47,447 bases of DNA from Nemertoderma westbladi (Eukaryota; Animalia; Xenacoelomorpha). The DNA lies in the NCBI GenBank assembly GCA_032718475.1, contig JAUCBJ010006749.1:1-47447 (forward strand). Direction: 5' to 3'. The translations under genes and the position numbers were made by a program. The notes under the pieces are model-generated. The model was given only the letters and a program-made list of their open reading frames with translations, had not been told where the DNA came from and did no database searches. Of the stretch, positions 1 to 47,447 are shown one piece after another; position 1 is the first letter of the stretch; every line of letters begins with the position of its first letter.

Positions 1-637
1 CGGCAATCCGTTCAGACCTAATAACAGCCAGACAACTATCCAGCCTACAAATTATCTAAATAAAATTATACGCTACCCGTACAGACTTACACAAACAAAG
101 TACAGACTAAACGATGGCAGACCACTCTCAAGCCTAAATAAACCACAGGACATGCAGACTCCGAAATGATTAGGGAGTATGCGCTCTAACCCAGTAGTGC
201 GACTTATTCTTTAGTTGGGGGATTACCTTACCGCATTGGCTGCCCCTACTTCCTAACCGTACTTAATCGGACAAGTGCTCTACACACACTGTAATCCGTT
301 CAGACTTAACAGCAATCAGACAACAGCTCAGCCTACAAATTGTCTGTACAATCTGATCAGGTTTACACGCCTTCTGTTCAATACTGGCCTACAAACAAAT
401 AAAACTTGACAGAAATAAGTAAAATCTCAATAAAAACCAGGGCTGCAGTCCCTGATTAATTATTAAGGCCTACTGGTATATAATAATCAAAATCGAATAA
501 TACTAGTGTACTTATACTGAAGTACCGGTTAGAACAGTTAGGCCTACTGACCTACAGAGTGTACCGGTTCAGGTTTACCGGTTGACCGGTACTTTCAACT
601 TTATTGCTTACTGCAACAAAGAAGCTATATCCTTTAA
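1..637 (-). mobile_element. 5' internal (leader) region of the LTR element whose 5' LTR is 638-1867; runs out of the window
   Basis: Directly follows the LTR end on the minus strand. Its TTGCAGTAAGCAATAAAGTTG resembles TTGCAGTAGGCAATAAGGTTG downstream of the LTR at 46061-47282. Contains a ~50-bp imperfect direct repeat (6-57 vs 293-346). Confidence 0.65.
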
Positions 638-1867
638 TGTTCTCGCTTTCAGACCTTTGGCAGTTTAACCCACCAAATCAAGATGTCTTCTAGATATTAA
701 ATCTGCTTTTAGTCTATGACAAATATTTGATTCACTACACTAGTCGAAACCAATCCGTGCGCGACCATTCACCCGCTGGATATTCCCGGGAGATTGGGTT
801 CGACGGTTTAATTTTATTGCTATGTAAGCCTAATGTATTATTCGACTGACAGTATTATATAATCTCTGACAATATTATTCACCTTCGGTAATATTAACAG
901 TTCCTTTAGGACGTGGCGCTTTATCTATATAAACAGAGTTATGACTTAAACTACTCACAACGATATGGCTTAATTATAATTCACATATATGGCGCATTCT
1001 TTAGGAATTGCTTCTTTAACAGACTCACTCATACACAATGCTGCACAATACTGCACACTAATCTGCCAATCTTCACTGATTTTAGTCACATATAAAAGGA
1101 ACACAGGCTGACTCATGTAGGGTCTATCAAATAACATTAGATTCACTTCAAACCACTTTAACATAAGTCACAATCGTTATTGGTAACCTTTCTCTCTTAC
1201 CTTCGGTATATCAAGAATATTGGGTTGCGGGGTTATTTATCGTTATTCCAAATATAATAATTCATCAACCATATTATGAAGAACTGACAGTAAATAGCAG
1301 TATAAACAACAACTGAACAGTTAGGTATATCGGTACATCAGTACCGGTATGTCAGCATTGAGATATTTACAGAGATATTCAAGTAGTCCGTTAAAGGATA
1401 TATGCCCTTTATAATTAAACCTACTAGTGTAAGACTAAAAGCAGTACAGCACAAAATACTTCCAAGCCGTTCTTTCTTTGGCTCAAGTCTGAATGTAAAC
1501 ACTGCACATAGGCATTGCGTCATTTCTCGGAAATTTTCTGTACAAGGAGCCACAAAAACGCTCTCATTGGCTGACTGAACTGAGAGACGCCGTAGAACAA
1601 AGGAAATCAACACGTATGAATGTCAGCTGTTAACCGTAGTCATAGTAACTACTGTTCAAGAGTAGCTATCACCCCTTTGCGTCACGAATTGCCATAGAAT
1701 CATAAAATATGCCTTTCACAGTACACATACGGAGGAAATAGGTCTTAGATCCTCTAAAAACACCGATACAGCAATAATACGGTCTCTTACACTTATTAAA
1801 TCAACTACAGAGTATTTTAATGTAAAAGATAATAAAATAACGGGGCAATTCAGCAAAGGCTTTTACA
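638..1867 (-). mobile_element. LTR copy A (5' LTR, 1230 bp) of the TGTAAAAG...AACA family, inserted into the gag of the BEL element
   Basis: Minus strand starts TGTAAAAGCCTTTG and ends GAAAGCGAGAACA. Has CCAATGAGAGCG and CAGCTG motifs and the 30-nt block GCGCCACGTCCTAAAGGAACTGTTAATATT (890-919) shared with copies B, C and D. No TSD; abuts the BEL reading frame at 1868. Confidence 0.85.
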
Positions 1868-4800
1868 CCCGAAGAAAAAACAAGTGTACACAATGTTACT
1901 CAGAGTAAGGTGAGTAACATCAAACCGAAATGTGCGCTATGTGATGGGACCCATCGCTTAAATATGTGTGATGAATTTCTAAAGAAATCATTAACTGAGA
2001 GACGTGAAGTCATGTGGGATAAGCGGTTGTGTTATAATTGCCTCAGACATGGACACCAACGGCGAACCTGTTACTCTGACACAAGATGTGCCAAGTGCGG
2101 TGCGAAACATCATATCTTGTTGCACACTGAATTCGAGCGAAATAGTCCGAGTCAGGTAAGTGATTCCGAACTACATGTCCAATTCAGTGATGTGAACGAC
2201 ACTGATCAATCTGAGATGGAAGGATTCTATACGGACGAGTTCTCCGACGAAAACGAATCCTGTTACACGATAAATACCACAGTGTATCGAGCACTCACGT
2301 ATGAAAGAGATACGGACAGCGACCTTACCCTAACTACTTCTGATCAACAACCATTTTGGAAAGCGCCAACTTCCAATGTAGGGATTAGAGAATTTCCTGT
2401 GGTACAGGTAAGGGTCCACGGACCAAAAAGGAGTTATGTAGTGAACGCCCTCCTTGACTCCGGTAGTACAGGAACATTCATCGACAAAGAGCTAGCCGAA
2501 GACATATTCGATGGACAACCCAAGTTCCGAACTAAGCTAAACATGTCAGGAATTATGCAAGTTTGGAAATCCACAGTAACAGCGGATTATTATGTAGGTG
2601 TGTTGTCCACCCCCCAGGACGAACTAGGAGAACGTAGCATAAGGTCAGTGAAAATGGTGGCTATAAAGAATTTCACTACTACTCAAGCAGACCTTTATAA
2701 TTGGGACGAGGATGAGAGCATCCAACATCTTAAGATACCTCGATTCCAGACAGATTATCCTGGAGTGCAAATACTCATCGGTCAAAATGCGCATGAAGCG
2801 CTCGAGACATTGGAGAAACGACCTGCTCAACCGCAACCTCTACAAGTTTATGCGGGAAGAACTAGAGTAGGTTGGTACTTTACTGGCCCTTCCCGTAGAA
2901 CTCTCATGGAAAGATTACCGAAAGATCAGGTATATCAAGCGCGAGAATGGGAAGTTGAGAACAGTGAGTTCGACGATCCAACTGAGGGAACTCCATACTC
3001 CTCAGACAACGACGATATACATCAACTTTTTGATGAGGAGAATGCCATCGATCTCCTTAAGGAAAGCGAGACTTGGCAAAATCAAGTGAACTTATGTCAA
3101 CTTCTTCTCCCATCCGAGCGAGACGACTATAACGACGAGCTTAATGACGTCATTGAACGTTATAATGCCAAGACTCGGGATGAACACGCCGTAAGATTCT
3201 TTACTCAAGAGGTTGTAGAGCCCAACTCCTACGATAAGGCCCTATCGGTGGAGGAAGAAAGAGCCAAGCAGATCCAAGCGACAACTACTCGTTTTCTTAA
3301 AGATCAAGGTAGGTATGAGATCGGACTTCCTTTCCGAAAGCGAGAACCGAAGTTCATTAACAACAGACCTTTGGCGGAGAAAAGAATTGCGCAACTACAT
3401 CGACGCCTTACGGCAAATTCTTCAGCTAAAGAAATGTATCAAACACAGTTGAAGAAGTTTATTAGCAAGGGATATGCGGAGCTAGTACCAGAAGAAACAC
3501 CCATAACTGAGAGAACGTATTATTTAACTCACCATTACGTTCCCAAACCCGGTAAACCCCATGAAGTACGAGTGGTGTTCGACGGCTCCGCCCTCTATAT
3601 GGGCCAATCCCTTAATTCTGAAATGTTACCCGGACCCAACTTACTCCAATCCTTGTTGGGAATATTATTAAGGTTAAGACAATACTCCATTGCTTTCGCC
3701 TCAGATATAGAAGGCATGTTCTTACAAGTCAAAGCGCTGGATAGGGATCGAGATAGTCTACGATTTTTGTGGTGGCCTGAAGGAGACCTCAATAAGAAAC
3801 CTGTGGAGTACTGGATGACCATCCAAGCTTTTGGGATAATCTCGAGCCCTTCAAACGCCTGTTCCGTGGTGCGCACCACTGCGGATGACAACCGAGACGC
3901 CTTCTCTAAAGAAGTGATTGACAATATCAAACGAGACATCTACATGGACGATAATCTGAAGTCCCTTCCATCAGTCGAAGAAGCCATTGAGGTCGCTAAA
4001 GGAACGGTAGAATGCTTAAAAAAGGGTGGATTTCGATTAACTAAATTCACTAGCAACTCCCGTGAGTTTCTGGAGTCGATCCCGGTAGAAGATCGGGGAG
4101 CAAAAGACCTAGATCTAATAAAAGATGATCTCCCAGAAACTAAGACCCTTGGTTTGAAATGGGACACAGAAAGAGATATCCTGTTTTTCCAATTAAAACA
4201 GCGAGATAATCCAGTTCGGACTAAACGGATTTGTTTAAGTATCCTGAGCACTTATTTCGATCCATTGGGATTTATTAGCCCAGTTATATTGATTGCTCGG
4301 AGTTTAGTACAACAAATGTGGCTTGAAAACCACTCATGGGACGATCCACTTAAGGGAGAATTATTAAAGAAGTGGATGAAATGGGAAGATTCTCTACCAG
4401 CCATCGAAAACTTCATAATTTCCCGTTCATATTTTGGTCATGTTCTCCCTACGTATTCATATCAACTCCATGTGTTTGGAGACGCCAGCGATATGGGAAT
4501 CGGTATAGTAGCCTACCTAAGGGTGGAAACTCCGGACGGAATTAAAGTCGCCTTGGTTACCTCTAAGGCATTAATAAACAACAAGTTGAAAGTTCCTCGA
4601 GCGGAGTTAAAAGCGGCTCTATACGCTACAGCCATCGGCCGGAATGTAACAGAACAGATCGACTATCCCCTGGAGAAAACTGTCTACTGGACCGACGCTT
4701 TACTCGTGTTGGAGTATATAACCAATGAAGTCTGTCAGTTCAGCGTCTTCGTTACCAACAGAGTAGCTATTATACTCAGTCGCACGACGATGGATCAATG

Positions 4801-6826
4801 GAGACATTGCCCCGGAACGATTAATCCAGCAGACATCGCTTCCAGGGGAGCAACTCCACAAGAACTGGTAGATACTCCAGACTGGTTAGGTGGACCCGAC
4901 TTCCTCTACCAAGAAGAAGAAGAATGGCCTCCTCATCTTACTACAGCAGAAATTAGACAGGCCAAGGGAGCGGAGAAAGTCAAACCTAAAACTCAGGCGA
5001 GTAAATCGAAGTTATTCAAACCCACAGTAGATCTGTCTGTACTACATACTTCCGGAGACGACGCTTTGGATCAGAAACCCACAGCCACAAATAAACCCAT
5101 TGTGGAAATCCGTGATAAGGATTGGAAATCTGGCATACCAGACGTCTCGCAAGGACTCTCACCTCTTCTGCAGAGAGCGATACATCACTACAGTTCCTGG
5201 AATCGGCTTTGTAAGGCCGTTACATATTTAAAGAGATGTTTTCACCATCACTACTCTGGGATGAAAACAAAGGGTGATACCGCTCCAATCACATCAGTGC
5301 AGGTCCATGTTATTAAAGACATCCCTAAATATAAGGTACCCGACAAGTTTCTGAAGGAGAAGATCAGTTATCAGGAGCATGAAGAAACCAACAAACAGAT
5401 GCTGAGACTCTTACAATGCTATGAAGATTCCGATAAGTATTTCCTGTTGTTGAGAAATCCACAGATGCGCTTAAGGGATCGTTTCTCTAGCACAATGATA
5501 GATGGGTTGATACGTGTTGGAGGAAGGTTAACGAATGCCCCATTATCCTTTGATACTAAGTTCCCCATACTCATTAGAAATCTTGAAATACAAGTCAAGA
5601 TGATTGTAGATGTTCACAGCAAACTTTATCATGCTGGTAGAGAACGAGTTCTTAGCGAAATTCGAACTCGCTATTATTTTTATAAACCCCGTAGAGCTCT
5701 GAACCAAGTTCTTAGGAACTGTATACCCTGTAGGAAAGCATTCAGTAGGCCTTTAACACAGAGAGAGGCAGAATTACCTAGGGAACGAGTAAGCTTTTAT
5801 GAACCACCCTTTACTAATACCGGTGTGGATTTATTTGGCCCTATTGAAGTATATCGTGCTAGGACTATAGTCAAGATATGGTGTGTAATCTTTGTTTGTA
5901 TGACTTGTAGAGCCATCCATCTCGATATGGTGAACGATTTATCTACCAACAGCTTTCTATTAAGCTTACGACGACAGATCGCTCGCTTTGGCACTAGTAA
6001 CACGATGAGATCTGATAAGGGAACAAACTTCATTGGTGCCAACAATGAAATCAAAGCTTACTTCAAAGATTGGAACCAAAGACAGGTGGACGACCAACTA
6101 CGAGTAACAGCGTCTAGTTGGACCTTCAACGCCGCCGACGCCCCTTGGTGGGGAGGAAGTTGGGAGAGATTAATAAGAAGCGTGAAGACAGCATTTCATT
6201 TTATAGTGCCTTGCCGCGCTTATCTCACCGACGAACTTTTGCGGACGTTAATGGAAGAAATCGCCGCCTATCTCAACGAGAGACCGCTTATGCCAGTCTC
6301 ATCGAGTCCCGATTCCCTGGAAGCGCTAACACCCGCGCACTTCCTACTGAAGAAACCTGTAGCCATGCTCCCACAATCGGAAATCACAGACGGAGACGAA
6401 TACTGCCGACAAACTTGGCAACTCATGCAGTTGTTATCCCGTCGTTTCGCCGACCATTTCGAAAAACATTATCTGCCCACGCTACAACTTCGAACTAAGT
6501 GGTTTGCGCAGCAAGAAAACGTCAGCGCTGGAGACATGGTGCTTATTGTGGATGTGGATCTTCCACGTAAGCGGTGGCAGACAGGTCGTATAATCGAGAC
6601 GCACGTCTCAGATGACGGTTTGGTGCGATCGGTAGAACTCGTCGTCATGCGACGTAACTTCAAGAAACCGGGAATTGTCTTCGAGACGCAGCAGCTCAAT
6701 CGCCCGGTGGGACGTTTATGTTTACTGGAAAGAGACAGAGAACTCTCCGGAAACTATGGGAGACAAGATACTCTTCCCACGACCACCTCCCTAATCCAAC
6801 AAACATCTAGGGACTCCCCAACTTAA
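1868..6826 (+). CDS. BEL/Pao LTR retrotransposon polyprotein (Gag zinc knuckles, protease, RT, RNase H, integrase), 5'-truncated by LTR A
   Basis: Three Cys/His knuckles (CALCDGTHRLNMC, CYNCLRHGHQRRTC, CAKCGAKHHILLH), protease LLDSGS, RT SDIEGMFLQV...LRFLWW...YMDDNLKS, RNase H LHVFGDAS...PRAELKAA...YWTD...NPADIASRG, and integrase H-H-C-C, GVDLFGP, SDKGTNF, WERLIRSVK with the BEL-type C-terminus (GDMVL...DGLVRSV...RPVGRLCLL). The frame is open from 1868; the GTG at 1910 is not a real start. Confidence 0.96.
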   Translation, partial: PEEKTSVHNVTQSKVSNIKPKCALCDGTHRLNMCDEFLKKSLTERREVMWDKRLCYNCLRHGHQRRTCYSDTRCAKCGAKHHILLHTEFERNSPSQVSDSELHVQFSDVNDTDQSEMEGFYTDEFSDENESCYTINTTVYRALTYERDTDSDLTLTTSDQQPFWKAPTSNVGIREFPVVQVRVHGPKRSYVVNALLDSGSTGTFIDKELAEDIFDGQPKFRTKLNMSGIMQVWKSTVTADYYVGVLSTPQDELGERSIRSVKMVAIKNFTTTQADLYNWDEDESIQHLKIPRFQTDYPGVQILIGQNAHEALETLEKRPAQPQPLQVYAGRTRVGWYFTGPSRRTLMERLPKDQVYQAREWEVENSEFDDPTEGTPYSSDNDDIHQLFDEENAIDLLKESETWQNQVNLCQLLLPSERDDYNDELNDVIERYNAKTRDEHAVRFFTQEVVEPNSYDKALSVEEERAKQIQATTTRFLKDQGRYEIGLPFRKREPKFINNRPLAEKRIAQLHRRLTANSSAKEMYQTQLKKFISKGYAELVPEETPITERTYYLTHHYVPKPGKPHEVRVVFDGSALYMGQSLNSEMLPGPNLLQSLLGILLRLRQYSIAFASDIEGMFLQVKALDRDRDSLRFLWWPEGDLNKKPVEYWMTIQAFGIISSPSNACSVVRTTADDNRDAFSKEVIDNIKRDIYMDDNLKSLPSVEEAIEVAKGTVECLKKGGFRLTKFTSNSREFLESIPVEDRGAKDLDLIKDDLPETKTLGLKWDTERDILFFQLKQRDNPVRTKRICLSILSTYFDPLGFISPVILIARSLVQQMWLENHSWDDPLKGELLKKWMKWEDSLPAIENFIISRSYFGHVLPTYSYQLHVFGDASDMGIGIVAYLRVETPDGIKVALVTSKALINNKLKVPRAELKAALYATAIGRNVTEQIDYPLEKTVYWTDALLVLEYITNEVCQFSVFVTNRVAIILSRTTMDQWRHCPGTINPADIASRGATPQELVDTPDWLGGPDFLYQEEEEWPPHLTTAEIRQAKGAEKVKPKTQASKSKLFKPTVDLSVLHTSGDDALDQKPTATNKPIVEIRDKDWKSGIPDVSQGLSPLLQRAIHHYSSWNRLCKAVTYLKRCFHHHYSGMKTKGDTAPITSVQVHVIKDIPKYKVPDKFLKEKISYQEHEETNKQMLRLLQCYEDSDKYFLLLRNPQMRLRDRFSSTMIDGLIRVGGRLTNAPLSFDTKFPILIRNLEIQVKMIVDVHSKLYHAGRERVLSEIRTRYYFYKPRRALNQVLRNCIPCRKAFSRPLTQREAELPRERVSFYEPPFTNTGVDLFGPIEVYRARTIVKIWCVIFVCMTCRAIHLDMVNDLSTNSFLLSLRRQIARFGTSNTMRSDKGTNFIGANNEIKAYFKDWNQRQVDDQLRVTASSWTFNAADAPWWGGSWERLIRSVKTAFHFIVPCRAYLTDELLRTLMEEIAAYLNERPLMPVSSSPDSLEALTPAHFLLKKPVAMLPQSEITDGDEYCRQTWQLMQLLSRRFADHFEKHYLPTLQLRTKWFAQQENVSAGDMVLIVDVDLPRKRWQTGRIIETHVSDDGLVRSVELVVMRRNFKKPGIVFETQQLNRPVGRLCLLERDRELSGNYGRQDTLPTTTSLIQQTSRDSPT

Positions 6827-6844: not shown

Positions 6845-7256
6845 TGTGACCATATTATTTTATATTTGTATTTGTTTTATTTTTATATTTATGTATGTAT
6901 TATTATGTAATTTTATTTTAATCGTTTTATTTTATTTTATTTAGTAACATGTTATTTTAGTGATCATTTAGTAGATTAGTGCAATATATATTCGCGTTTA
7001 TAATTTAATTACGTATATTATATATTTAGTGCGACGGCGAGAAATAATTCTTTTTCTCTTTCCTTACTGCCCGTATTACATTATCAATACGTGACTACAG
7101 TAAGATGAAATCTTCGTACTTATTAAAGTACAATAAAGCCACTACTATATTCAAGTATTATTGGTAGGCAGAGTATTAGGAATGCAAAGTTCAGATCCTC
7201 GTGTCTCGGCTAAACCAAGCTCTGGGTAGACCTTGGAAACGACTTGCCTCTTCACA
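6845..7256 (+). mobile_element. Probable 3' LTR (412 bp) of the BEL element
   Basis: TGTGA...TCACA 5-bp inverted termini, preceded by a PPT-like tract, with AATAAA at 7132-7137. No second copy in the window confirms the right end. Confidence 0.55.
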
Positions 7257-7683: not shown

Positions 7684-8469
7684 GGAATAAATTTAAGTTC
7701 ATATATTTCAATGAATTTAATAAATTGTCATTTTATACAATTTATAACATTCCCAAAATTCCATTAATTAATAGATCATGGGAGCGGAGATTCACTCTAT
7801 TAAGTGTATTTGTGTGCGAGAATCTCCAATGTATAGTCAATAGCCGATAAAATTCATAGAATCATGTATAAAGGGGATATTGACCATTAAAGAATTACTA
7901 TTAAATAGCATCCCAGATCTGTATGCATGAGAATTACCCTAATTCTACCGCTAGCTTTCCATAATGTCACCATGGCAACAACCACGCTAGAATTAGAAGT
8001 GAGTTAAAAGAACAATAGAAAGCATGCCCCATTGAATAGCATAGGGAATAAATAGCGCACTGCTAGTATCCAAGGATACATAATAAATACAGTGACATTC
8101 TGGAAGGTACTGACTAACGGACAAATGGCCCGAATGTGTACAGTTTGTTGCAGTTGTGTTGAATTTGTGCGTTTGTAGGTGAATGTTACTACTAAGGTGT
8201 GTTTACAGTAGCGAGTCGCAATTGTGAAAGTAACCCTAACTCTCCAAGAAGAACCTGCAGTACATCTAAGCCTTTGGGACGGACAGTGAAGTGACTTGTG
8301 CCGGTTATCGTTGTCGTTGTGTAGCTACATCGTTGGCGAAAGCACAGCGACGACGGTACATCGGCGCTGAGGATCTTACACTGTCCGGGGGCAAAAGAGG
8401 GATAGGCAGCGACGCCCGCTAGCCTAATATATATAGACTCATTATAATATTGATAAACTCATAGCAGAT

Positions 8470-11400
8470 ATGACTGAGTTGATAGAAGATGATCTTGGCA
8501 TCAGGGAGCGATATACTCTACCTTTACAAGCGTTTGTCGATAGCTTGATACGCGGCGACGCTGGTCCAACTACTACGGAGGATGATGGTCGTTATATCGA
8601 ACCGCCGATGTCCCCGGAGCAACTTACGCGTGAATTGGACTATAGAAAGTTCACCGCTCGCTATACGCATCGTAATGGTACGTATATGGACTTCTTAACT
8701 ACCGGCCACCCTATCGATTTACACGATACGGACGATGTGGATACCGAAAGGGAAATGGTTTTATTTAAATATCATACCCAACGGAATCGGAACGATAAGC
8801 CAAGAATAGAACACGAGAACTCTATTCGAAACCGACTCGAAAGAGAAGACGTTGCAGAACCGGATAAACGCAACGACTTCAACGATTATCTGGAATTCTT
8901 GAGAGAAACATACCTCAATATTGCCAGTCAACAAAATCTCGAAACTCGATATCCTCAAGGTATACATCATGATCCTATGATAGAACTCAAACGACTCTAT
9001 TTCACTATGATGTATCTTACCGCCGATCGACCGCTACCTGTTGTCCCAGATAGCTTCGAACAGATGGAGGAATATTGTAAAACTGGAGAACGATCACCCG
9101 CGTTTCCTCTGCAAGACATGCGTCTTTGGTATTACTGTGACGAATGCCCTAGACCCAATCAGCAAACGGAAAGACATAAACATCCGCAGAGACGTTGCGC
9201 TAAACACAGTTTTACACGATATACTTACGGGAGTTTCGAGCAAAACCTGTTCGACGTGTCCCCGGCGGTCGCTCGACTCAAGCGATCCTTGAACAAACCG
9301 ATGATCAGAGTTCCGGAATACTCGGTCAGACCTCCGCATTCCTCAGTTAGACCTCAAACTCTTGACCCTAATAGTATCACGGATCCTCCCGAACTGTACT
9401 CACTGTTCAAAGATCTAGTGTTACCCGAACAGTTGATCGGTGGCACTCCGGTAGTAGGCTCACGAGACATTCGCCAACCCTACCTAGCTGGATTGGGACG
9501 TGGTCATCTAATATCGCCGTTTAACCCATACAACCGTCCCGGCTTCACCTCTATCCAACCCGTTACGGAAGTCGAAGAGAGCGTCGTACGAAACGCATTA
9601 GACGCTATTCGGCAGAAAATCGGAAAGGGAACGTACGATTGTTTGGAGAAGCGTAAATTGCAGCAACAAGTCCAAGCGGTGAAGGAATTAGCTTTACCCC
9701 AGTTCGATAGAGAAATACAAAATCTCGAGGAGGACATCGAACGTGGACGAACCTACTCTTTACAAGAGTTTCTAGATGAGCGTCTACAACAACAACCGGA
9801 GGAGAATCAGCTCGAGGAGAGACATATAGAACTGGATGAGAGAGAAGAAGCGGCTTTAGCTCAACCCGAAGCGCAAATCCTTATGACGGATCTCTACTCT
9901 AAAACCATTCTTCATCCCTCGATGGTTCCCCATTTCGGAGACAAACTTTTTGCGACGGCACAACCCCAACCGGTTGATATCAACCTAAGATCTCGCGATC
10001 TTATCGCAGACGCTCCTCTGTTGCAGCGTCCGCCCATCGAACCCGCTCGTGTCGATGGTATACTCGTTGAACCTCCGGACAATAGAGCAGATCTTGTCTG
10101 TCGCATGGTACACGATGTAAACATACGCGCTAGACCTTTACCGGACTCGTTTTATGGGATCAAAGATCACCCTTATTACGTCAATCTAAAACAATATTAC
10201 ATGGTAAAACCGGAAGATCCTACACATAGTCTGAAGTTTCTACCGTTAATAAATCCTCTCGATCTTGTCGAACTCGAACAACTGCAGAAACATCTGGATC
10301 AGTTAGTTAAAGTAAACTCGTTTCGAAAACCATATAATGTTTCCAGAATAGAGAAAGAAACAATACCTCCGTATAATCTTGATGGATTCATCAAAACTCG
10401 TTTAGTGCACTGGAATCTTGATGTGTTATTCGAGGAGGAAAGAATACAACGATATGGAGATGTGGAAACATATACCACACAATATTTAAAGTATAAAGAC
10501 CTGCCTAATGCTAGCGAATGTGCTACCTTGTGGCATCCTGTGGGAATGACACTCGAAAACGCCACTAAAGAGTGGAACGAAACTCTTAACGTTATCGAGA
10601 TGTATGGAGTTGTCACTTACGATAACGAAGGTAGCGTTCCGGTTGGAGAACTTGGAACTACGCGGATGATACATATACGAGGACTCGCTGGTTCTACCCA
10701 CGTATTTACTCGAGCGTGTTCCGACGTTATTGATTATTCTTTTGAAACTCTTACTGAGACACAAAAGAAACTCCGACATGGACAATTTGAACTCGCGCAG
10801 CGTTACGTCACCGACACCGAGCGCAAGCCGGCCATGGGTATCGATGGATCGATGTTACCCCAACCCGTGCTCGAGATGCTGTTTAACGAAGGAATCCTTA
10901 AAATCGGCTCAGCTGTTTATGGAGACCTACAGAACGACTTTCGGAATATGGAGAACATTCCATACCCCTTCGTTGATACTCAGCTGATTGCTCCTTGGGC
11001 AGAAGGCCGAGGTTTCTTCCGCACTATGTATGCCAATACACCCAGCGGAATTACCAAAGTACAACGAACCTCCATCGGACATCTTGCCTTTCAAGAATAC
11101 GGATGGAATTTCAAGGTTGGAAATCCTATAAATTACCAACAAGTATACGGAGATCACTATTCTCGTTTATACTTTGATGGACCATTGACCGCACCTGGCG
11201 CCGTGTATAGCTTTATGAGTGTTCCACTTCGTCCCTCCTTAGCTATATACACGATCTTTGAAAACGCAGCACTTGCCGGTTGGCTAGCCGATGTGTGCAG
11301 TCGTACTATACGCGCCCATCCCTTAATACTTGGAACCAAACTCGCCAAGTTAGATGAACACAATAAATTCATCCGCTTTGAATGTTTCAGGCGCTTTCTG

Positions 11401-12723
11401 ACTCCGTTCCGTAACGTTGATAGTCAGTTCAAGGACCGCGCTCTGACCAAACTCAGCCTGAGAGACTCAGCGGCGGAGAAGCTAAACAGCGCGGGATTTG
11501 CCCTTTTTCAGGACGTTTGTATACAGAACTTGCACTCATCTGTTATACAAAGACCCCGAATACCCACGGGTTATTCTGTCGTCGAAGTTCAGACAGTGGG
11601 TCCGCTTGCGGAGACAGCCGCACCTACCTCAGCTATGCAATTGGAAGACGAACCAATATGCTTAGAAGCTGAAGCGATTCAGCCTACAGCGCCCCGGAGC
11701 AGCGATAACGACTACGTCTTAGAGTGGTATCAAGGTCCACAATGTCTCACCGCATACGATTATCGACACGCTAACTATGTTTCTCGAAAACGTTGTCGAT
11801 TATGCGCATCGAGAGACCATTTCACTCCTATGGACTCAGACGTACCCTGTTCCTATTTCCACGAACAACCAATGATGGAGATATATTGTGCGTATTGCAG
11901 ACTTAATAACTCTCATATTTTTGCAGTCTGCCCCCAATTTATGACTCAATGCCACCACTGTCAACTTAAAGGACATGCCAGTTATAATTGCCCCTTTAAT
12001 CACGATATAGAGAGCGTAGATGAAATGATTACCCTGCGCTACATCCGAGCTTGGGAAGCTAACGCGGATTTACACTGTGAGTCCCGTCATCGATACTACC
12101 CTGGACGCTCTTACGAGGGAGTTTACGCGTTCCATCCTTATTTATTAGCGTCTGTGGAACAAAAAACACGCATACCGAGTTACGAGCTAATGAAGCGTGT
12201 TGGTGAGTGTATTTCCACTAAATTTGTTAGAAGATACCTTAGGAACGTCAATCCTAACGATATTACTTCATACCATTTGATCAATTATATCCGTCAAGAC
12301 CCTGAGTATGGCGATTTATTTATCAACTCGCACCCTGAGTTACAGGAAGTATCTCGACGGCCCTACGAATATCGAGCCCGAGAACGCGAGCTGGAAAGAA
12401 CTATTAAACCAAGGAAGTTTCTCACCACCCCCGGTCCGCCTACCGCCATTACCCAGACAACCCGTCAAGGACCCGTAGGAGCTGCTGTCCTGAGGCGCGC
12501 CCTAAAGGCTGTTAGACCTCGCTCCACGGAAGTTGATATCGATCAACCAGGTACCTCGACCGGCGGATACACCGATCGCAATCCGAAACCTTCTGATGCA
12601 ATTGTATTGCACCCTTCACCCAGGAGTTACAGCCCTCCTAGTAAAGTGGCTCGCCCCAAAGAGAAAAGGACTCTTGCTAGCCTCAAAAAACTGCGTAAAC
12701 GCCGTCCGCGTAAGAAAGACTAA
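8470..12723 (+). CDS. 1417-aa retroelement accessory protein: DEDDy (WRN/RNase D-like) 3'-5' exonuclease domain, CCHC zinc knuckles, basic tail
   Basis: Intact ATG-initiated ORF. ExoI-like VVTYDNEG (D at 10621), ExoII-like LPQPVLEMLFNEGILKIGSAVYGD (D at 10924), FVDTQLIA, SIGHLAFQEYGWNFK, and ExoIII-like PLRPSLAIYTIFE. Knuckles CRLCASRDH, CAYCRLNNSHIFAVC and CHHCQLKGHASYNC at 11794-11991. C-terminal KKLRKRRPRKKD. Domain call is by motif recognition only. Confidence 0.8.
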   Translation: MTELIEDDLGIRERYTLPLQAFVDSLIRGDAGPTTTEDDGRYIEPPMSPEQLTRELDYRKFTARYTHRNGTYMDFLTTGHPIDLHDTDDVDTEREMVLFKYHTQRNRNDKPRIEHENSIRNRLEREDVAEPDKRNDFNDYLEFLRETYLNIASQQNLETRYPQGIHHDPMIELKRLYFTMMYLTADRPLPVVPDSFEQMEEYCKTGERSPAFPLQDMRLWYYCDECPRPNQQTERHKHPQRRCAKHSFTRYTYGSFEQNLFDVSPAVARLKRSLNKPMIRVPEYSVRPPHSSVRPQTLDPNSITDPPELYSLFKDLVLPEQLIGGTPVVGSRDIRQPYLAGLGRGHLISPFNPYNRPGFTSIQPVTEVEESVVRNALDAIRQKIGKGTYDCLEKRKLQQQVQAVKELALPQFDREIQNLEEDIERGRTYSLQEFLDERLQQQPEENQLEERHIELDEREEAALAQPEAQILMTDLYSKTILHPSMVPHFGDKLFATAQPQPVDINLRSRDLIADAPLLQRPPIEPARVDGILVEPPDNRADLVCRMVHDVNIRARPLPDSFYGIKDHPYYVNLKQYYMVKPEDPTHSLKFLPLINPLDLVELEQLQKHLDQLVKVNSFRKPYNVSRIEKETIPPYNLDGFIKTRLVHWNLDVLFEEERIQRYGDVETYTTQYLKYKDLPNASECATLWHPVGMTLENATKEWNETLNVIEMYGVVTYDNEGSVPVGELGTTRMIHIRGLAGSTHVFTRACSDVIDYSFETLTETQKKLRHGQFELAQRYVTDTERKPAMGIDGSMLPQPVLEMLFNEGILKIGSAVYGDLQNDFRNMENIPYPFVDTQLIAPWAEGRGFFRTMYANTPSGITKVQRTSIGHLAFQEYGWNFKVGNPINYQQVYGDHYSRLYFDGPLTAPGAVYSFMSVPLRPSLAIYTIFENAALAGWLADVCSRTIRAHPLILGTKLAKLDEHNKFIRFECFRRFLTPFRNVDSQFKDRALTKLSLRDSAAEKLNSAGFALFQDVCIQNLHSSVIQRPRIPTGYSVVEVQTVGPLAETAAPTSAMQLEDEPICLEAEAIQPTAPRSSDNDYVLEWYQGPQCLTAYDYRHANYVSRKRCRLCASRDHFTPMDSDVPCSYFHEQPMMEIYCAYCRLNNSHIFAVCPQFMTQCHHCQLKGHASYNCPFNHDIESVDEMITLRYIRAWEANADLHCESRHRYYPGRSYEGVYAFHPYLLASVEQKTRIPSYELMKRVGECISTKFVRRYLRNVNPNDITSYHLINYIRQDPEYGDLFINSHPELQEVSRRPYEYRARERELERTIKPRKFLTTPGPPTAITQTTRQGPVGAAVLRRALKAVRPRSTEVDIDQPGTSTGGYTDRNPKPSDAIVLHPSPRSYSPPSKVARPKEKRTLASLKKLRKRRPRKKD

Positions 12724-12801
12724 CTGTTTAGAGTATTTTTATATTTTAGAAACTGTGATTTGTTATATTTTATAGACTTAAATCCCATTTTCTGGGAGCG
12801 G

Positions 12802-13946
12802 TGTAAAAGCTTTTGCGTAATTAACCGGTTATTTTCCCTTAAAGTACGCTGTAGTTGGTTTGCCAGGCATAAAAAGGCCGTGTCCTTGCTGTACTGGTGT
12901 TTTAGAGGACATAAAAGTCATTTCTTCTGTATTTGTACTTTAGAGGACATAATCCGCAATCTCGTGACGCGATAAGCTAGATACTCTTGAAAACAGTGTC
13001 GCTACCATGACGACGGCTAACAGCTGATATTGCCACGTCGACATTTCTTTGTTTCTTTGTTCTCTCGTTGTTCGGTTGACCAATCAGAGCGTTTTTTGAC
13101 TCTGTGTTGGATTTGGATACAGAAACTCAGTAGTTCAGTGTTATGTTTTGCCCAGAGCCTAAGAACACCGGCTTTTGGCACCTCCGTATATCAGCATTAT
13201 TTAGCTTTACATTAGTAGGCTTAATTATAGAACGTATATCTGTTATCAAACCATAACTAAACATATCATACATATCTTACTTAACATTACTGCTTTTACT
13301 GTCGGTTATTCATTATATTTGTTGATGAAATATTATATCGGAACACTGATCAATAGTCAGACACCCCACCTTCTTGATATACTAAAGGTTAGAGAGACCG
13401 GTTACAGATAAACGATTGCGACCTATGTTAAGTGGTTTGAAGTGAATCTAATGCTATTTCATATGCCCGACATAAATTGTATGTTGCTCTCTTTATACGT
13501 GACCAAATTTAGTGAAGGTCGGCAGATTAGTGTGCAGTATTGTGCAGCATTGTGTATGATTGTAACTGATAACAAAGCATCTCCTAAAGAATGCGCCATA
13601 TACGTGAATCTATAGCCTTTTCGTTGTGTCTGGTTTAAGTCATAACTCTGTTTACATATTTAGAGCGCCACGTCCTAAAGGAACTGTTAATATTTCCCGA
13701 AAGTGAATAATATTTGTCAGAGATTATATATTACGATCAGTCGAATAATACAGTAGGCTTACACCATTAATCATTAAGCTCCGAACTCAGTCTCCCGGGT
13801 ATATCCAGCGGGTGAATGATTGCGCATAGACTGGCTTCGGCTAATGTAGTGTATCAAATACTCGTCATAAGCTAAAGAATATATATCATCCAAAAGACAT
13901 CCTAATTTAGCAGGTTAAACTGTCAAAGGTCTTAAAAGCGCAAACA
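12802..13946 (+). mobile_element. LTR copy B (3' LTR, 1145 bp), preceded by PPT-like TGGGAGCGG
   Basis: TGTAAAAGCTTTTG...AAAAGCGCAAACA, with CCAATCAGAGCG and the invariant 30-mer at 13665-13694. Starts 78 bp after the 1417-aa ORF stop. Flanks AGCGG/GTAAT are not a TSD, so it is not a solo LTR. Confidence 0.85.
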
Positions 13947-21977: not shown

Positions 21978-22883
21978 CACCATGACCCGTAATATAGTGT
22001 CATTTTCTGATGACACGGACCCCCCCCAAAAAAATTTTTCTACAAATCTTTATCATATTGCTTGAAATTGGAAACACAACTAGTCCCACTCACCGTGGTT
22101 GTTACCATGAAGCCGGAATTTTCGATTTCGCCTTTAAATTTTATTTGTAAGCGTTTTAAAAAAGTATGTTTTGCGAAATCGCACCCTCTGTATCATTGCC
22201 ATTCTTCACTTTAGTCGTAATTTTTTCACATCAATAGAAAGCTTGCGTTGCAAGGATTCCAAATATGTAACAATGTCTGAATTTCATTGAGAAACAGCTG
22301 AGAAATAGGCATTCAAAGATTGCAAGAATTATTGTTCACTACAAGCCATTTATTATATTAAATAAATACACAAAATTCTAGAACGTGTTATTTATTTTAT
22401 GAGTTGGTAGGCAACAGCGGTATGCCTATACAATATCTATATTGCCTAGCTAATCATACATAAAAAAAAATTGTTCCAGAATATTGTGTATTTATTAAAT
22501 AGAATAAATGGCTTGCAGCGAACAATAATTCTTGCAATCTTTAAACGCCTATTTCTCAGCTGTTTCTCAATGAAATTCAGATATTGCTACATATTTGGAA
22601 TCCTTTCAACGCAAGCTTTCTATTGATATGAAAAAATTACGACTAAAGTGAAGAATGGCCACGATACGGAGGGTGCGATTTCGAAAAAGACACTTTTTTA
22701 AAACGCATATGAATAAAATTTAAAAGGCGAAATCGAAAATTCCGGCTTCATGGTAACAACCACGGTGAGTGGAACTAGTTGTGTTTCAAATTTCAAGCAA
22801 TATGATAAAGATTTGTAGAAAAATTTGGGGGGGGGGGGGGGTCCGTATCATGAGAAAATGACACTATATTACGGGTCATGGTG
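21978..22883. mobile_element. Palindromic non-autonomous DNA transposon (TA target; Tc1/mariner-like)
   Basis: TA|CACCATGACCCGTAATATAGTGTCATTTTC...GAAAATGACACTATATTACGGGTCATGGTG|TA. ~410-bp inverted arms and an ~85-bp spacer. A related terminus lies at ~21565-21592. Confidence 0.85.
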
Positions 22884-29494: not shown

Positions 29495-29853
29495 CACAGA
29501 AGTACAGAAGAATCCTAAGCCGGTGTTCTGGGCTTAGAAAGATACACACTGACTGAATTGCGTGAGTTTCTGTAGGCACTGTCCAACACAAAGTGAAAAT
29601 CGCTCTGATTGGTCGAGCGAGCCGAACAAAGAACAAAGAAAAGCTCCACGCTGGCATTAAATCAGCTGACAGATTTCGTCATCTGAGTTACAGTCTTTAG
29701 AGTATTAAGCGAATTGCGGCAAAATGGCTAGTTATGTCCGCTAAAGCACGCATACAGACATAACGGGTAAAAATGGCTTGTTATGTCCGCTAAAAGCACC
29801 TACACGGTACATTGCGGAGAAAATGACTGGTTATATCCACAAAAGCTTTTACA
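29495..29853 (-). mobile_element. LTR copy E (U3-side fragment)
   Basis: Minus strand TGTAAAAGCTTTTGTGGAT, TTTAGCGGACATAA x2, CAGCTG, CCAATCAGAGCG, AGAACACCGGCTT. Similarity is lost before the structured region. Confidence 0.8.
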
Positions 29854-40820: not shown

Positions 40821-41030
40821 GTATATATTACATATATATAAAAAATGCTGTGCCGGCTTGTCGACAAAATTTGCGCCGCCACAACTCCCTATCACCCATA
40901 ACATTTGCTAGATCATCCGCATCTTCAAGGCCGGTGTACTTTAAGATGCGTCTCAAGAAAGCCATGGGCTGTCCACCATGCATATACTCCATGAGGCCCC
41001 CAAAGCACAAGATTATGCACTGGCCGGTCC

Positions 41031-42492
41031 GGTTATATTAAAAAATATCGAGACATGAAAAATATCGAGAGTAAAAATATCGAGTGTTGAAAAATAACTA
41101 CTACTAGGATCGGCATGCTGCATTGCAGCTGCATTTTTAAGAATGCTGTGCCGGCTTGTCAACAAAATTGCACCGCCACAACTCCCTATCACCCATGACA
41201 TTTGCTAGATCATCCGCATCTTTAAGGCCAGTGTCCTTTAAGATGCGTCTCAAGAAAGTCATGGGCTGTCCACCATGCTTATTCACTCCATGAGGTTGCC
41301 AAAGTACAAGATTATGCACTGGCTGGTCCTCACGGCGAAAGCAATGTCCTGCAAAATAACGATAATATTGAGAGTTCAAAAAATATCGAGAGTAAAAATA
41401 TCGAGAGTAAAAATATCGAGAGTAAAAATATCGAGAGTAAAAATATCGAGAGTAAAAATATCGAGACTAAAAATATCGAGAGTAAAAATATCGAGTGTTG
41501 AAAAATATCGAGAGTAAAAATATAGAGTGTTGAAAAATATCGAGAGTAAAAATATCGAGTGTTGAAAAATATCGAGAGTAAAACTATCGATAGTAATATT
41601 AAATAAGGGTTGTATGATAATTGTTGTCCTAAAAATGTTCTAGAACCAAAAAATGTGTTCTAGAACAAAAAATATTTATAAACATTGGTAGCTTCCACGT
41701 CAACATTGGTAGCTTCCACGTGTTCTATAACTTTATAAAAATAAGTAGAAAATACTAGAATGTGTTCTAGAACAAAAATATTTATCAAAATTGATAGCTA
41801 GCACTTATTCTATAATATTTATAAAAAAAGTAGCAAAAACTAGCTAGTATAATAAATCGGGTACCCAAGGTGTATTAATGCCATTTACTTGCACTTGCAC
41901 TGTTGTAACCCATGCACTGAAATATTGTCCCATAATTCTAAATAAAATGCTCAAGCAAAATGCAATCTTTTTACTCTCGATATTTTTCAACACTCGATAT
42001 TTTTACTCTCGATATTTTTCAACACTCGATATTTTTCAACACTCGATACTTTTCAACACTCGATATTTTTACTGTCGATATTTTTCAACACTCGATATTT
42101 TTCAACACTCGATATTTTTACTCTCGATATTTTACTCTCGATATTTTTCAACACTCGATATTTTTCAACACTCGATATTTTTCAACACTAGATATTTTTC
42201 AACACTCGACATTTTTACTCTCGATATTTTTCAACACTCGATAATTTTCAACACTCGATATTTTTACTCTCGATATTTTTCAACACTCGATACTTTTCAA
42301 CACTCGATATTTTTACTCTCGATATTTTTCAACACTCGTTATTTTCGATATTTTTCATCTCGCGTTATTTTTGCTCTCGATATTTTTTAAACACGTTAAT
42401 TTTCAACACTCGTTATTTTTACTCACGATATTTTTACTCTCGTTATTTTTACTCTCAATATTTTTGAAGTCTCGATATTTTTCACCATTACC
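41031..42492. mobile_element. Foldback element with 15/17-bp modular inverted arrays
   Basis: AAAATATCGAGAGT/AAAATATCGAGTGTTG arrays on the left, inverted on the right. GGT...ACC termini; flanks GCCGGTCC/GCTGGTCC (8-bp TSD, one mismatch). Confidence 0.75.
41099..41352 (-). mobile_element. Short 5'-truncated RTE copy inside the foldback element
   Basis: FAGHCFRREDQPVHNLVLWQPHG...; (TAG)n tail; flanked by AAAATAAC on both sides. Confidence 0.75.
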
Positions 42493-43250
42493 GCTGGTCC
42501 TCAAGTCGAAAGCAATGACCTGCAAAGCGGAGGCGGCTTTGTTCTAGTGTCAATCTTGTGGGAACCAATAAGACACCTCCAATTTCTGGTTGGAGATGTG
42601 TGCATTGTACTTGACACAGTGAACCCGGCGTAGCATTCTAGTGAATGTCCATCCATAGATTTGGTGTTCAAGGTTGCCCATGCCATTCCCTTACGTATTC
42701 GAATGGTCCTCATCTGACTTCCGGATCCATGATCCCAGGTGTTGCGGTAACCGGCTAAATCTAGAGACAAATGCGTGGCCGGTTAGGGTTGAGTTTGGTT
42801 TGTTTTCACTGGTTGCGTAAGGGACGGATGATACAACTCAGGGTCTTGGGAAAACTAGTTCTTTGTTATTCCTTCCATGTATAATAGAAATGTCATAGGT
42901 AATAAACAGTGACCAGTAATAGCACAAGTCTGAATCTGATATCTGTACTGAGATACTAACCTTCCATCATATATAATACGTCTTACATATAAGCCGTCTC
43001 TCAGGTTTGAGGGACGCATGTGACTGAAGTATAAATTGGTATTACAACAGTACAAGCTACTATAGTTTGATAAGGGTTTGGCTTATTGCTGCCCTGACCA
43101 ATGAAATGTCGGAGCTACCAGTTAATATTGGCTAATGCCATAATGATTAATCACTTACTTTCCTGATTAATCCTTCTCTCACTATGTGTTGGCAACGGCT
43201 TGTGGTTAGTAAGCCGATGCCTATAGTAAGTTGTTATATACGACCTGCCT

Positions 43251-44455
43251 TGTAAAAGCTTTTGTGGGATAACTGATTCGTTTGCCTTGCTGGCCAGTTC
43301 CCCCCCGGTCGCTAGAATACTCTAAAAGGGATCTATAGCTAAAATAGTGCAAGCTACCAGCTTATTGGTTGATGTGCTGTACGAAGGTATCTGGGCTCCG
43401 TTTACTCGGCCAACCAGCTTAGGGAGGTTGCCTCAGCCTTGCTGTCCGTATCGGCCAATAGAATTTGAGTGGGCGTTGATTTTGACCTATCCCAGAGCTA
43501 CTGAACTGAATTTCCTATCTCTATGCTCATCCTCTGTGTTGGACGGGAGCTTCGGGGAATAAGGGTAGTTGGTATCCTCGTATAGTCAGGTAGTCATATG
43601 ATTCTTCATATGATTCTGTTGTTGTGTTCCCATTTTCGCCAGACCACCGGCTTTTGGGAAGAACTCTAGTAAAACTGCTTAAATTATCGAAAGTATAACT
43701 GTTATCTAATCAGCTAATCAACCAACCAACTAGTCTCACTCACTTAATTTAACTGCACTAATCATATTGTTTGTACTGTTATTTACCGTCAGTTATTAAT
43801 TGTATCTATTTGTTGATGAATTATTGCCCTTTGGAGAATACGGATAAATCACCCAAAATTCCCAATTTTCTTGATACACTACAGGTTAGAGAGACAGGCT
43901 ATACATAACAATTGCGATTTATATTAATGTGGTGTGTATTGAATCTAATGTTATTTAACAGACCCTACATGAGTCAATTGCTGCTCTCTTTATGTGTGAT
44001 CAAATTTACTGACGGTCGGCAGAATAGTGTGCATGATTGTGATTGGTAACAAAGCATTTCCTAAAGAATGCGCCTTATACTTTAATCATAAGCAGTATCG
44101 TTGCGTTTAGTATAAGTCCTAGCTCTGTTTAAATAGATAGAGCGCCACGTCCTAAAGGAACTGTTAATATTTCCCGAAAGCCAATAATATCTGTCAGAAA
44201 TTAATTATTAACGATCTATCGAATAATACAGTAGTTTTACACTGCAACCTTACACTGCAATAATACAATTTAAGCATCCGAATTCAGCCTCCCGGGTGTA
44301 GATCCATCGGGTGAATGATCGCGCATGGGCTGGCTTCGGCTAATGTTTTGTTTATTAGCATAAAATATTGTCGTATGCTAAAGGTGTTTTAATTAACTAA
44401 AAGACATATAAATTTTGGCAGGTTAAACTGCTAAAGGTCTTCAAAAGCGCGAACA
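43251..44455 (+). mobile_element. LTR copy C: solo LTR (1205 bp) defining the family boundaries
   Basis: TGCCT|TGTAAAAGCTTTTG...AAAAGCGCGAACA|TGCCT: exact 5-bp TSD and TG...CA termini. Invariant 30-mer at 44142-44171. Confidence 0.92.
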
Positions 44456-44820
44456 TGCCTGGTTCGTATTTCTTTCTAGGGTTAAGGCAACTTTGAGTGC
44501 TTTGGGTACTCCCACAGTGAAGGTGGCAAAATCACTGATGGGTAACGCGAGGTGTGTAAATTTAATTTTACTATCACATTACCACGCAATTGTATTACAT
44601 CCTTCACACTTCGCACGATTTTATGATTTGTTGTTTCATTGCCTCTTTTATTGGTACTCTCACACTAATACTTCTCTATTATACCGTTTTTCTATTTTTC
44701 TATATCTCTAGTATACCGAAAATACCAGTGCTAGTTTACAGTCTTCCAATAGTTAATAATACATCTACATCTACATCACGATAGTATACTGCTGTACTGC
44801 AGCAGTACCGCTAGGCCAAC

Positions 44821-45429: not shown

Positions 45430-45439
45430 GATCGGAGCA

Positions 45440-45969: not shown

Positions 45970-46060
45970 TCCCACAGATACTTCCCGAAGCAACTGTTGT
46001 AAATAATCCAGTACGAAATCACCAGGCTGTCTCTGCAGTTTTAGAACTCTCTAATATACA

Positions 46061-47282
46061 TGTAAAAGCTTTTGTGGGATAACTGATACGTTTGCCTTTG
46101 CTGGCCAGTTCCCCCCCAGGCGCTGGAATACTCTAAAAAAGGTTTTCTAACTGTATATATATTCCCCTCGCCCGCAAGGTACCTTTACAGGGGTTTTAAC
46201 GGACATAAAAGTAATTCTGCTATATACGTGTTTTAGCGGACATGGTAAGACAAAAAACTTGTAATGCACCAACCACCTTTCACAGCTTAGCCGTGATGAT
46301 TCATATTACGACATCTAGCAGCTGGTTGCTGACATGGAAACAGCCATTGGCCGCGTGGTTCTTTGTTTGGCTTGGGCCAATCAGGGCGGTTTTTCCTGTC
46401 GACGTGTAGCTTTTTAGTCGATCATAAGGAGAGTGTTCAGTCTTACTGTTTTTTCTTGATACTTTGTTGTTATTGCTGTCTAAGCCAGAAACACCGGCAT
46501 TTTTGGATAGATACTGCTGTACCGTAAACTGCTTGAATTATCGAAAGTATAAACTGTTACCGAATCGAATATCACCTAACTCATTAATCATATTGTTTGT
46601 ACTGTTATTTTACCGTCAGTTATTAATTGTAAATATTTGTTGATGGAAATATCGCTATTTGGATAATACGGATAAATCACCCAATTCCCAATTTTCTTGA
46701 TAACACTACAGGTTAGAGAGACCGGCTATACATAACAATTGCGATTTATATTAATGTGGTGTGTATTGAATCCAATGTTATTTAGCAGACCCTACGTGAG
46801 TCAATTACTGCTCTCTTTATGTGTGATCAAATGTACTGACTGTCGGCAGAATAGTGTGTATGATTGTGATTGGTAACAAAGTATTTCCTAAAGAATACGT
46901 TTTATACTTTAATCATAAGCAGTATCGTTGCGTTTAGTATAAGTCTTAGTTCTGTTTAAATAGATAAAGCGCCACGTCCTAAAGGAACTGTTAATATTTC
47001 CCGAAAGCCAATAATATCTGTCAGAGATTAATTATTAACGATCTATCGAATAATACATTAGGTATACACTGCAACCTTACACTGTAATAATACAATTCAA
47101 GCATCCGAATTCAGTCTCCCGGGTGTAGATCCATCGGGTGAATGATCGCGCATGGGCTGACTTCGGCTAATGTTTTGCGTATTAGCATAAATTATTGTCG
47201 TATGCTAAAGTGGTTTTAATTAACGAAAAGACATATAAATTTTGGCAGGTTAAACTGCTAAAGGTCTTCGAAAGCGCGAACA
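46061..47282 (+). mobile_element. LTR copy D (5' LTR, 1222 bp)
   Basis: TGTAAAAGCTTTTG...GAAAGCGCGAACA; closest to copy C; invariant 30-mer at 46969-46998. No TSD; followed by a leader similar to that after copy A. Confidence 0.9.
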
Positions 47283-47447
47283 GTAACAGTTTATCTTGTA
47301 TTGCAGTGTAAGTATTAAATACAGTTTAATACTGTTCTGTCGAACAGTAACAGTTTATAAATCTTATTGCAGTAGGCAATAAGGTTGCAAGTGTAGGCAT
47401 TAAATACAGTTTAATACTGTTCTGACGAACAGTAACAGTTTAAAATC
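47283..47447 (+). mobile_element. Start of the internal leader after LTR D, with repeated U5-end/primer-site units
   Basis: CGAACAGTAACAGTTTA at 47277, 47341 and 47426; TAAATACAGTTTAATACTGTTCTG twice. Confidence 0.75.

Follow-up and report, generated by a model that had tools for sequence, protein, structure and literature searches.

At a rough probability of 0.55, the long terminal repeats (LTRs) in the window, which is the whole 47,447-nt stretch of Nemertoderma westbladi DNA analyzed here, belong to a self-primed, probably BEL/Pao element that works in the manner of Tf1, with a structured LTR end beside the start site of reverse transcription and a primer cut by RNase H. Under this reading, the genomic RNA would fold so that a primer tract within the LTR pairs with the primer binding site (PBS) across a loop of ~720 to 750 nt, and a bulged stem and a terminal stem-loop would arrange the end of the LTR next to the PBS. 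As in Tf1, the cut by RNase H would fall at the primer 3′ end, and reverse transcriptase (RT) would copy ~720 to 750 nt, followed by strand transfer. The separate claim that it is RNase H that makes the 3′-OH is held at even odds.

Four TG..CA LTRs of 1.15 to 1.23 kb each (copies A to D) were found in the window, along with a fragment of a fifth copy.
638..1867, minus strand: LTR copy A, 1230 nt, a 5′ LTR with internal sequence after it
12794..12801, plus strand: PPT candidate, a purine-rich tract in the sequence immediately 5′ of LTR B
12802..13946, plus strand: LTR copy B, 1145 nt, TG..CA, a 3′ LTR after the extra ORF
29552..29853, minus strand: copy E, the fifth, a U3 fragment only
43251..44455, plus strand: LTR copy C, a solo LTR with the 5-bp TSD TGCCT
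46061..47282, plus strand: LTR copy D, 1222 nt, a 5′ LTR with internal sequence after it

Over the 3′ ~700 nt, the pairwise identity of the four LTRs is 73 to 94% (A-B, 80%; B-C and B-D, 73 to 74%; C-D, 94%). Copies C and D resemble each other closely at both ends (the first 76 nt, 93% identity; the last 709 nt, 94%), but between these ends (43327-43750 versus 46137-46575) the identity is ~38 to 41%. To judge by the sequences, the unrelated U3 middles of C and D probably reflect promoter-module exchange between families. The earlier note had described U3 as strongly divergent; U3 is diverged, but part of this is replacement, as seen in C and D, where the ends are alike and the middles are unrelated. 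The strings quoted in that note for the long stem, the CCCG/CGGG helix, and two hairpins are present in the alignment, which consists of four LTR copies from three lineages only and thus has low power in both directions.

LTR A adjoins the start of the BEL/Pao frame in the opposite orientation, and its element is read as a nested insertion beside that frame start. The LTR/extra-ORF family appears to have a high copy number, because very many contigs cover 7900-13946 (38206 contigs of organism A in run X1). Joints within contigs that skip 2.7 to 2.8 kb of the extra ORF (8838-11643 and 9831-12588) suggest that internally deleted copies of this family exist. An exact search for the invariant motif of the LTR gave 0 matches in viral, metagenome, and prokaryote genome contigs.

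The evidence for self-priming comes from LTRs A and D, in which the 12 nt directly 3′ of the LTR pair 12/12 with a tract inside the same LTR.
1391..1402, minus strand: self-primer of A, 12/12 complementary to the A PBS
626..637, minus strand: PBS of A, without a tRNA-type TGG start
46549..46560, plus strand: self-primer of D, 12/12 complementary to the D PBS
47283..47294, plus strand: PBS of D, without a tRNA-type TGG start
13236..13247, plus strand: self-primer homologue in B by alignment position, with a presumed role based on A and D

Both of the copies that keep a PBS (2/2) have a perfect self-complement; B's own PBS lies outside the window. The distance from the primer tract to the LTR end is 753 nt in A and 722 nt in D, and the chance expectation of a 12/12 match per LTR is 3.6e-4 (A) and 2.0e-4 (D). 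The sequences of the primer/PBS pair differ between A and D, a covariation to be expected if the PBS is a copy of the primer. Pairing of a self-primer at the boundary of the conserved domain had been proposed previously, and we find it at full length in two sequence variants. It is very probably used for priming reverse transcription. In both A and D, the duplex is predicted to continue past the primer core on its 5′ side for a few pairs. A tRNA-type PBS, as judged by a TGG start only, is absent at both sites, and a tRNA gene search of the window found none. In run X3, at least five contigs, among the 24 of 76 loose ends listed, pass the LTR end into a common tract, which has the sequence expected of a PBS whose primer would differ by no more than one indel from those of C and D and which is followed by an A-like leader.

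Downstream of LTR D (47283-47447), the LTR-end-plus-PBS motif recurs at about 47342-47356 and 47426-47440 in a tandem unit of ~84 nt, and there are three near-copies of the primer site in total. Spliceosomal formation of the primer was considered and rejected, as the primer is contiguous in the DNA of A and D and GT follows the primer end in 0/4 copies. CCAAT and TCAGT, which we take to be promoter-type motifs in these LTRs, lie 47 to 60 nt apart in B, D, and E, and their spacing suggests that the transcript may start ~100 to 120 nt upstream of the primer end. One contig of run X4 begins at 13871 with adapter-like letters, presumably those of a cDNA template-switch adapter, and this single contig is a hint of transcription from the sense strand and of a cDNA origin for run X4.

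Among Ty3/gypsy elements, self-priming has been shown in Tf1 and is described for the Tf1/sushi and Tcn1 groups, and in Ty1/copia there is a prediction of it for the TAR lineage (available text of PMC6317226 and PMC4600332). In Tf1, the RNA's initial 11 bases are paired to the PBS, and the cut by RNase H falls between bases 11 and 12 (available text of PMC7175516). The PBS of the element in the window lies just after the 5′ LTR, as it does in Tf1/Tf2 of S. pombe, Tj1, Tf1/sushi, and Tcn1 and in the predicted cases TAR, Houba, and Osr-1 of Ty1/copia. Tf1-type elements also have an 11- to 12-nt PBS complement in the LTR in place of a tRNA site (available portions of PMC7175516, PMC4600332, and PMC6317226), and they have RNA structure near the LTR end, which is predicted here. 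However, the loop between primer and PBS is 722 to 753 nt here, unlike that of Tf1, and whereas the Tf1 primer occupies nt 1 to 11 of its RNA, the primer here may lie ~100 nt inside the transcript. The element also departs from the Tf1 type in that the only pol is BEL/Pao and in that there is an extra exonuclease-like ORF. A Ty3/gypsy chromovirus pol was rejected as a candidate, since the only upstream pol is BEL/Pao; the element would thus work like Tf1 yet fall outside the Tf1/sushi group.

Two long open reading frames precede LTR B on the same strand.
1841..6826, plus strand: BEL/Pao gag-end/pol open frame (P0001), 1661 aa, with what we take to be the acidic motifs of RT, RNase H, and integrase
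8470..12723, plus strand: extra ORF (P0002), 1417 aa from the first Met, with a DEDD 3′-5′ exonuclease-like region and CCHC-like zinc knuckles

The pol frame has Pfam matches above the cut-off to Peptidase_A17 (E = 4.5e-36), DUF5641 (E = 1.6e-19), and Integrase_H2C2 (E = 6.8e-7). These domains, the TG..CA LTRs, and the 5-bp TSD are all as in BEL/Pao elements (Semotivirus), a group confined to metazoans (available text of PMC3601003). The absence of a TGG-type tRNA PBS and the LTR length of 1.15 to 1.23 kb are unlike BEL/Pao, and the link between LTR and pol is here only likely.

The order on this strand is pol, a 1.6-kb spacer, the knuckle ORF, the PPT, and LTR B, and we infer that the LTR likely belongs to the upstream BEL/Pao pol, because a metagenome contig (L002) has the same layout, with a spacer of 1.7 kb between BEL pol and a knuckle ORF related to this one. 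The 5′ LTR for the pol frame lies outside the window. After pol, at about 6846-7160, the sequence is AT rich, with a purine-rich tract before it and AATAAA within it; this could be a separate BEL LTR, which would make the BEL element a nested insertion. A protein-led search for relatives returned none in viral contigs or genome contigs and, in metagenome contigs, 4 loci out of 141 candidate stretches, none of which has LTR homology by blastn or profile search. At locus L001, a related ORF occurs with a TGG-type PBS and no self-complement of at least 7 nt. The arrangement there (L001:2023-2980) is a related knuckle ORF followed by ~940 nt of noncoding sequence, the TGG-type PBS, and an open frame.

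The DEDD-like region of the extra ORF lies at about aa 725 to 945 of P0002, with acidic residues at aa 728-731, 830, 847, and 938-942 that are presumably the DEDD exonuclease motifs. Residues 690 to 1000 match, with an Atlas score of 0.92, a cluster with PF01612 in 50%, although the 164 shared features fall just short of what true members of a family usually show. The same exonuclease-like region is 30% identical over 150 aa to P0003, which itself has a weak PF01612 match (E = 0.2). The extra ORF has no Pfam domain at an E value of 0.01, and its single-sequence structure model has a pLDDT of 29 and leaves the exonuclease fold unconfirmed; for these reasons, the exonuclease label is likely but not firmer. 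Searches for homologues of the extra ORF gave two in one search and none in the others, the P0003 search returned only itself, no solved structural relative of the extra ORF was found, and every lead from an Atlas search with the knuckle region scored below 0.9. Just before the extra ORF, 8200-8470 is GC richer and noncoding, is covered with the family in four runs, and has no credible Rfam match; it could be an internal promoter, a splice acceptor, or a translation signal.

Juno and Vesta, LTR retrotransposons of bdelloid rotifers, likewise carry an additional ORF on the 3′ side, their DEDDy ORF3, and the Y-x3-E third motif seen here may match the rotifer DEED variant; Juno and Vesta differ in their LTRs of 159 to 551 bp and in having a dUTPase (available text of PMC5408684). 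The words “PBS,” “priming,” and “ribozyme” do not occur in the main text of that paper.

A putative exonuclease in the element would bear on how the primer end might be made. The primer could be the 3′ end of the genomic RNA, in which case the tract of the 3′ LTR would pair with the PBS and a 3′-5′ exonuclease, possibly the element's own DEDD-like protein, would trim the tail to the duplex with no internal cut. This would give a role to the exonuclease-like extra ORF with its Atlas match, acidic motifs, and P0003 relative, and it fits the absence of AATAAA and ATTAAA from LTRs B, C, and D; a transcript start ~100 nt upstream would also leave an R overlap for strand transfer. However, we found no precedent for such trimming, the fold of the putative exonuclease is unconfirmed, and L001 has a related ORF beside a TGG-type PBS. 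In addition, the variant signal AATACA lies at the same place in 4/4 copies, and the rotifer DEDDy ORF3s are described as auxiliary (available text of PMC5408684). Overall, trimming from the 3′ end is a quite unlikely source of the primer.

The second part of the self-priming reading, a structured LTR end, concerns the conserved 3′ ~700 nt of the LTR. These features are given in the coordinates of copy B.
13288..13775, plus strand: 5′ and middle stretches of the domain, conserved in sequence
13781..13840, plus strand: long stem of 5 + 7 + 4 bp with a 15-nt 3′ bulge (13813-13827) and 3 two-sided pairs
13820..13825, plus strand: bulge tract with the LTR end (13938-13943) as predicted partner, one two-sided change, and one break in A
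13894..13933, plus strand: terminal stem-loop, with a 5-bp base, an 8-bp hairpin, and a GUUAAA loop, 13 nt from the LTR end

The whole ~700 nt had been proposed as one large folded RNA. Against our main null, which keeps the per-column pattern of change and conservation, the gaps, and the dinucleotides, this holds for the last ~170 nt (consensus-fold z, −4.79; 0/100 nulls as good; antisense z, −1.23), but the 5′ ~500 nt and the domain as a whole fold no better than the null. The z value is +2.25 for the 5′ part, where 99/100 nulls fold as well, +0.39 for the middle part (65/100 nulls as good), and −0.20 for the whole domain (10/30). The regions, module boundaries, and pairs were picked after inspection of the data.

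A model of this 3′ module has 35 pairs, with 98.6% of cells paired and 4 two-sided changes, and 13 to 18 of 500 shuffles are as good. Compensatory changes in the long stem, as reported in the earlier note, are borne out at three pairs and exceed the conservation-keeping null: the helix 13787-13793/13828-13834, with its 3 two-sided changes, is matched in 0/100 regional and 0/30 whole-domain nulls. The terminal hairpin reads as that note had quoted it, but all four of its changes are one-sided, none being two-sided, and one of its pairs is disrupted in B. For the pairing of the bulge tract with the LTR end, the read data have C at 13821 in about 90% of the depth, and the partner position, 13942, is unreadable; this pairing may therefore be broken in many copies. 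Among the 18 variable positions in 13800-13930, 3 fall at the 43 predicted paired positions and 15 at the 88 unpaired ones (p = 0.09). Two of these three variable paired positions give wobble or compensated pairs, and at the third, 13840, the pair is kept only with the partner change of copy A.

Folds of the module in single copies reach z values of only −1.0 to −2.6, and A, B, and C favor another register. This alternative, the best single-sequence fold in those three copies, combines 13787-13789/13817-13819 with pairing of 13820-13825 to the LTR end, and one of its pairs shows a two-sided change. The two registers could be the states of a switch.

Retroviral R-U5 leaders likewise have stem-loops at the LTR end by the PBS, as predicted here, and conservation of long retroviral R regions has been tied to stem-loops (available text of PMC3601003). 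Such leaders differ in using tRNA primers, and no Rfam leader family matches here. By analogy with the U5-IR stem of retroviruses and Tf1, it is somewhat more probable than not that the 3′ module holds the start site. The U5-IR comparison reportedly goes back to a study cited in PMC7175516. A nuclease-recognition fold, one of the functions suggested previously for the domain, has the best precedent of those suggested, because Tf1 needs RNA structure for primer release by RNase H. The AATACA at the same place in all copies lies just before this module, which could therefore be U5, with the rest of the domain forming a long R.

Upstream of the module, the folding results are different. Single-sequence folding of the whole domain (20 shuffles each) gave z values of +0.71 (B), +0.59 (D), and −2.98 (A), and among 75 sliding sense windows of 120 nt, 4 had a z value of −2 or lower, two of them in the last ~220 nt. 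Conserved helices number 134 on the sense strand versus 75 on the antisense strand. Plain column shuffles give 50 ± 12 helices, but this null was replaced because shuffling destroys the clustering of conservation; the conservation-keeping null gives 112 ± 20 sense helices, and 4/30 nulls reach 134. The excess of sense over antisense helices is thus not distinctive. Four candidate helices (13299-13313/13512-13525, 13419-13428/13470-13479, 13391-13396/13487-13492, and 13577-13582/13589-13594) are not above the null. On measures of pairing, two-sided changes, and score, a nested 58-pair model of the 5′ part (89.7% paired, with 5 two-sided changes) is equaled in 61 to 129 of 500 shuffles and a model of the middle part (34 pairs, 95.6% paired, 2 two-sided) in 68 of 500. 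The GCATTT/GAATGC hairpin, quoted previously as varying to GTATTT/GAATAC, reads as quoted. No coding constraint was found in the domain: across all frames and copies, no stretch without a stop exceeds 67 codons. The 5′ ~500 nt most likely represent a long R region kept by mixed RNA and DNA signals, such as those for 3′-end formation, packaging, and factor binding, rather than one catalytic fold.

Conservation within this region is strongest in one block.
13664..13694, plus strand: invariant 31-nt string, containing GCCACGTC, exact in 4/4 copies

It had been described as an invariant 30-mer; the string is in fact 31 nt long. Of the 701 alignment columns, 420 are invariant, and the run of 29 invariant columns is reached in 0/5000 column shuffles. 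The motif GCCACGTC has five matches in the window, four of which are the invariant block, and the fifth lies in the U3 of B at 13032-13039. Because of this recurrence, and because GCCACGTC resembles a bZIP site, part of the block may act as DNA. A second motif, TCCTAAAG(G)AA, is invariant twice in the domain. The 31-mer also overlaps in sequence with primers and a PBS: 8 nt recur in the primers of C and D (sense), and 7 nt recur in the PBS of A. Other 31-mers of the domain reach that overlap in 0/22 (A), 0/21 (D), and 1/23 (C) cases, although this was seen after the fact. In both variants, the 31-mer could be a competitor of the duplex that primer and PBS form.

These data raise the possibility that conservation of the domain is ordinary, with slowly changing R and U5, U3 swapped between families, an invariant block made of DNA sites for factor binding, and, as RNA, only the terminal stems of importance. 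The two LTR ends common to C and D with unrelated U3 middles between them, the occurrence of GCCACGTC in the U3 of B, the two invariant TCCTAAAG(G)AA sites, and the 500 nt without an excess of structure all point this way. Two observations would be left unexplained, namely that a single C-G pair of the 13577-13594 hairpin changes to U-A and that, in 4/4 copies, 13298-13313 takes part in a shifted long-range pairing. We regard ordinary conservation, taken jointly with the DNA sites, as possible at clearly worse than even odds. It is compatible with self-priming and departs from the preferred reading on the 5′ 500 nt only.

At the other extreme, the ~700 nt could be a new large ribozyme, whose core would be the invariant 31-nt block, cutting at the primer 3′ end and leaving a 3′-OH, as in release of the 5′ exon by group I and group II introns, so that the element would make its RT primer by RNA catalysis. 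The geometry of primer, long domain, and PBS would fit, and the 31-mer and other invariant blocks exceed chance. A 10-mer resembling the R element of group I introns is at the same place in 4/4 copies. AU-rich ribozymes can score weakly in folding, and four sequences give little power. However, the part with the invariant block has no excess of structure (z, +0.39), the group I P4 and P7 pairings fail across the copies, and domain V is not conserved. The bases after the primer differ in 4/4 copies (CGGA, AAAC, UAAU, and CGAA), and no U-G pair is found at the cut site. The earlier note could not match the domain to a known RNA class, and neither could we: Rfam gave no match over the window at the gathering score, and at E values up to 10, for copies A, B, and D, it gave none in A and only weak, unrelated matches below the cut-off in B and D. 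The Rfam scans, core-pattern scans, and cut-site bases thus yield nothing positive for a ribozyme, which we consider very improbable.

Known ribozyme classes were each sought and set aside. A pattern scan for the hammerhead core with stem II gave 0 matches on the eight strands of the four copies, loose twister patterns matched at nonhomologous places, and no HDV-like fold was found via Rfam, the sole means used for that class. Small self-cleaving ribozymes leave a cyclic phosphate, an end that RT cannot extend. For group II, one loose pattern match to domain V, the hairpin with an AGC/CGC triad, occurs in C only and runs out of the LTR, with no Rfam match, and the GUGYG expected after the 5′ exon is absent from the bases that follow the primer. 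For group I, inspection by eye found the P4 pairing in C and D only and a P7-like pairing mismatched in A, B, and D; in place of the U-G pair at the cut site, the pair at the end of the primer is A-U in A and C-G in D.

If a cut at the primer 3′ end is made, it would leave the genome uncapped, and the domain might then serve mainly as an internal ribosome entry site (IRES) or packaging signal for the capless RNA, as was also suggested previously. The leader of more than 700 nt, with further noncoding sequence before gag (in A, the 637 nt after the LTR contain no long ORF), and the lack of coding constraint would suit this putative function. However, the Tf1 cut depends on the element's own RT, and translation therefore need not use the cut RNA. 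An IRES or packaging signal as the main role of the domain is rather unlikely.

A self-primed BEL/Pao element, if real, would place self-priming in all three big LTR groups (Ty3/gypsy, Ty1/copia, and BEL/Pao) and would bear on whether tRNA priming came late, as proposed in the available text of PMC3601003. Within the available text of the literature searched, which includes few subscription papers and so shows absence weakly, no report of self-priming in BEL/Pao or of a primer-releasing LTR ribozyme was found. A loop of 720 to 750 nt with a possibly internal primer would mean that primer release can do without a short 5′ hairpin. The intact primer-loop-PBS units of A and D are ready substrates for work on the source of the 3′-OH, be it RNase H, exonuclease, or RNA.

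Other repeats were also seen in the window. The sequence between LTRs C and D (44456-46060) is a decayed fragment of a non-LTR element with an AP-endonuclease domain at 45451-45969. Long imperfect inverted repeats at 22020-22838, with 261-nt arms that are 90% identical, are MITE- or foldback-like, and arrays of 15/17-nt units in two opposite orientations occupy 41028-42504.
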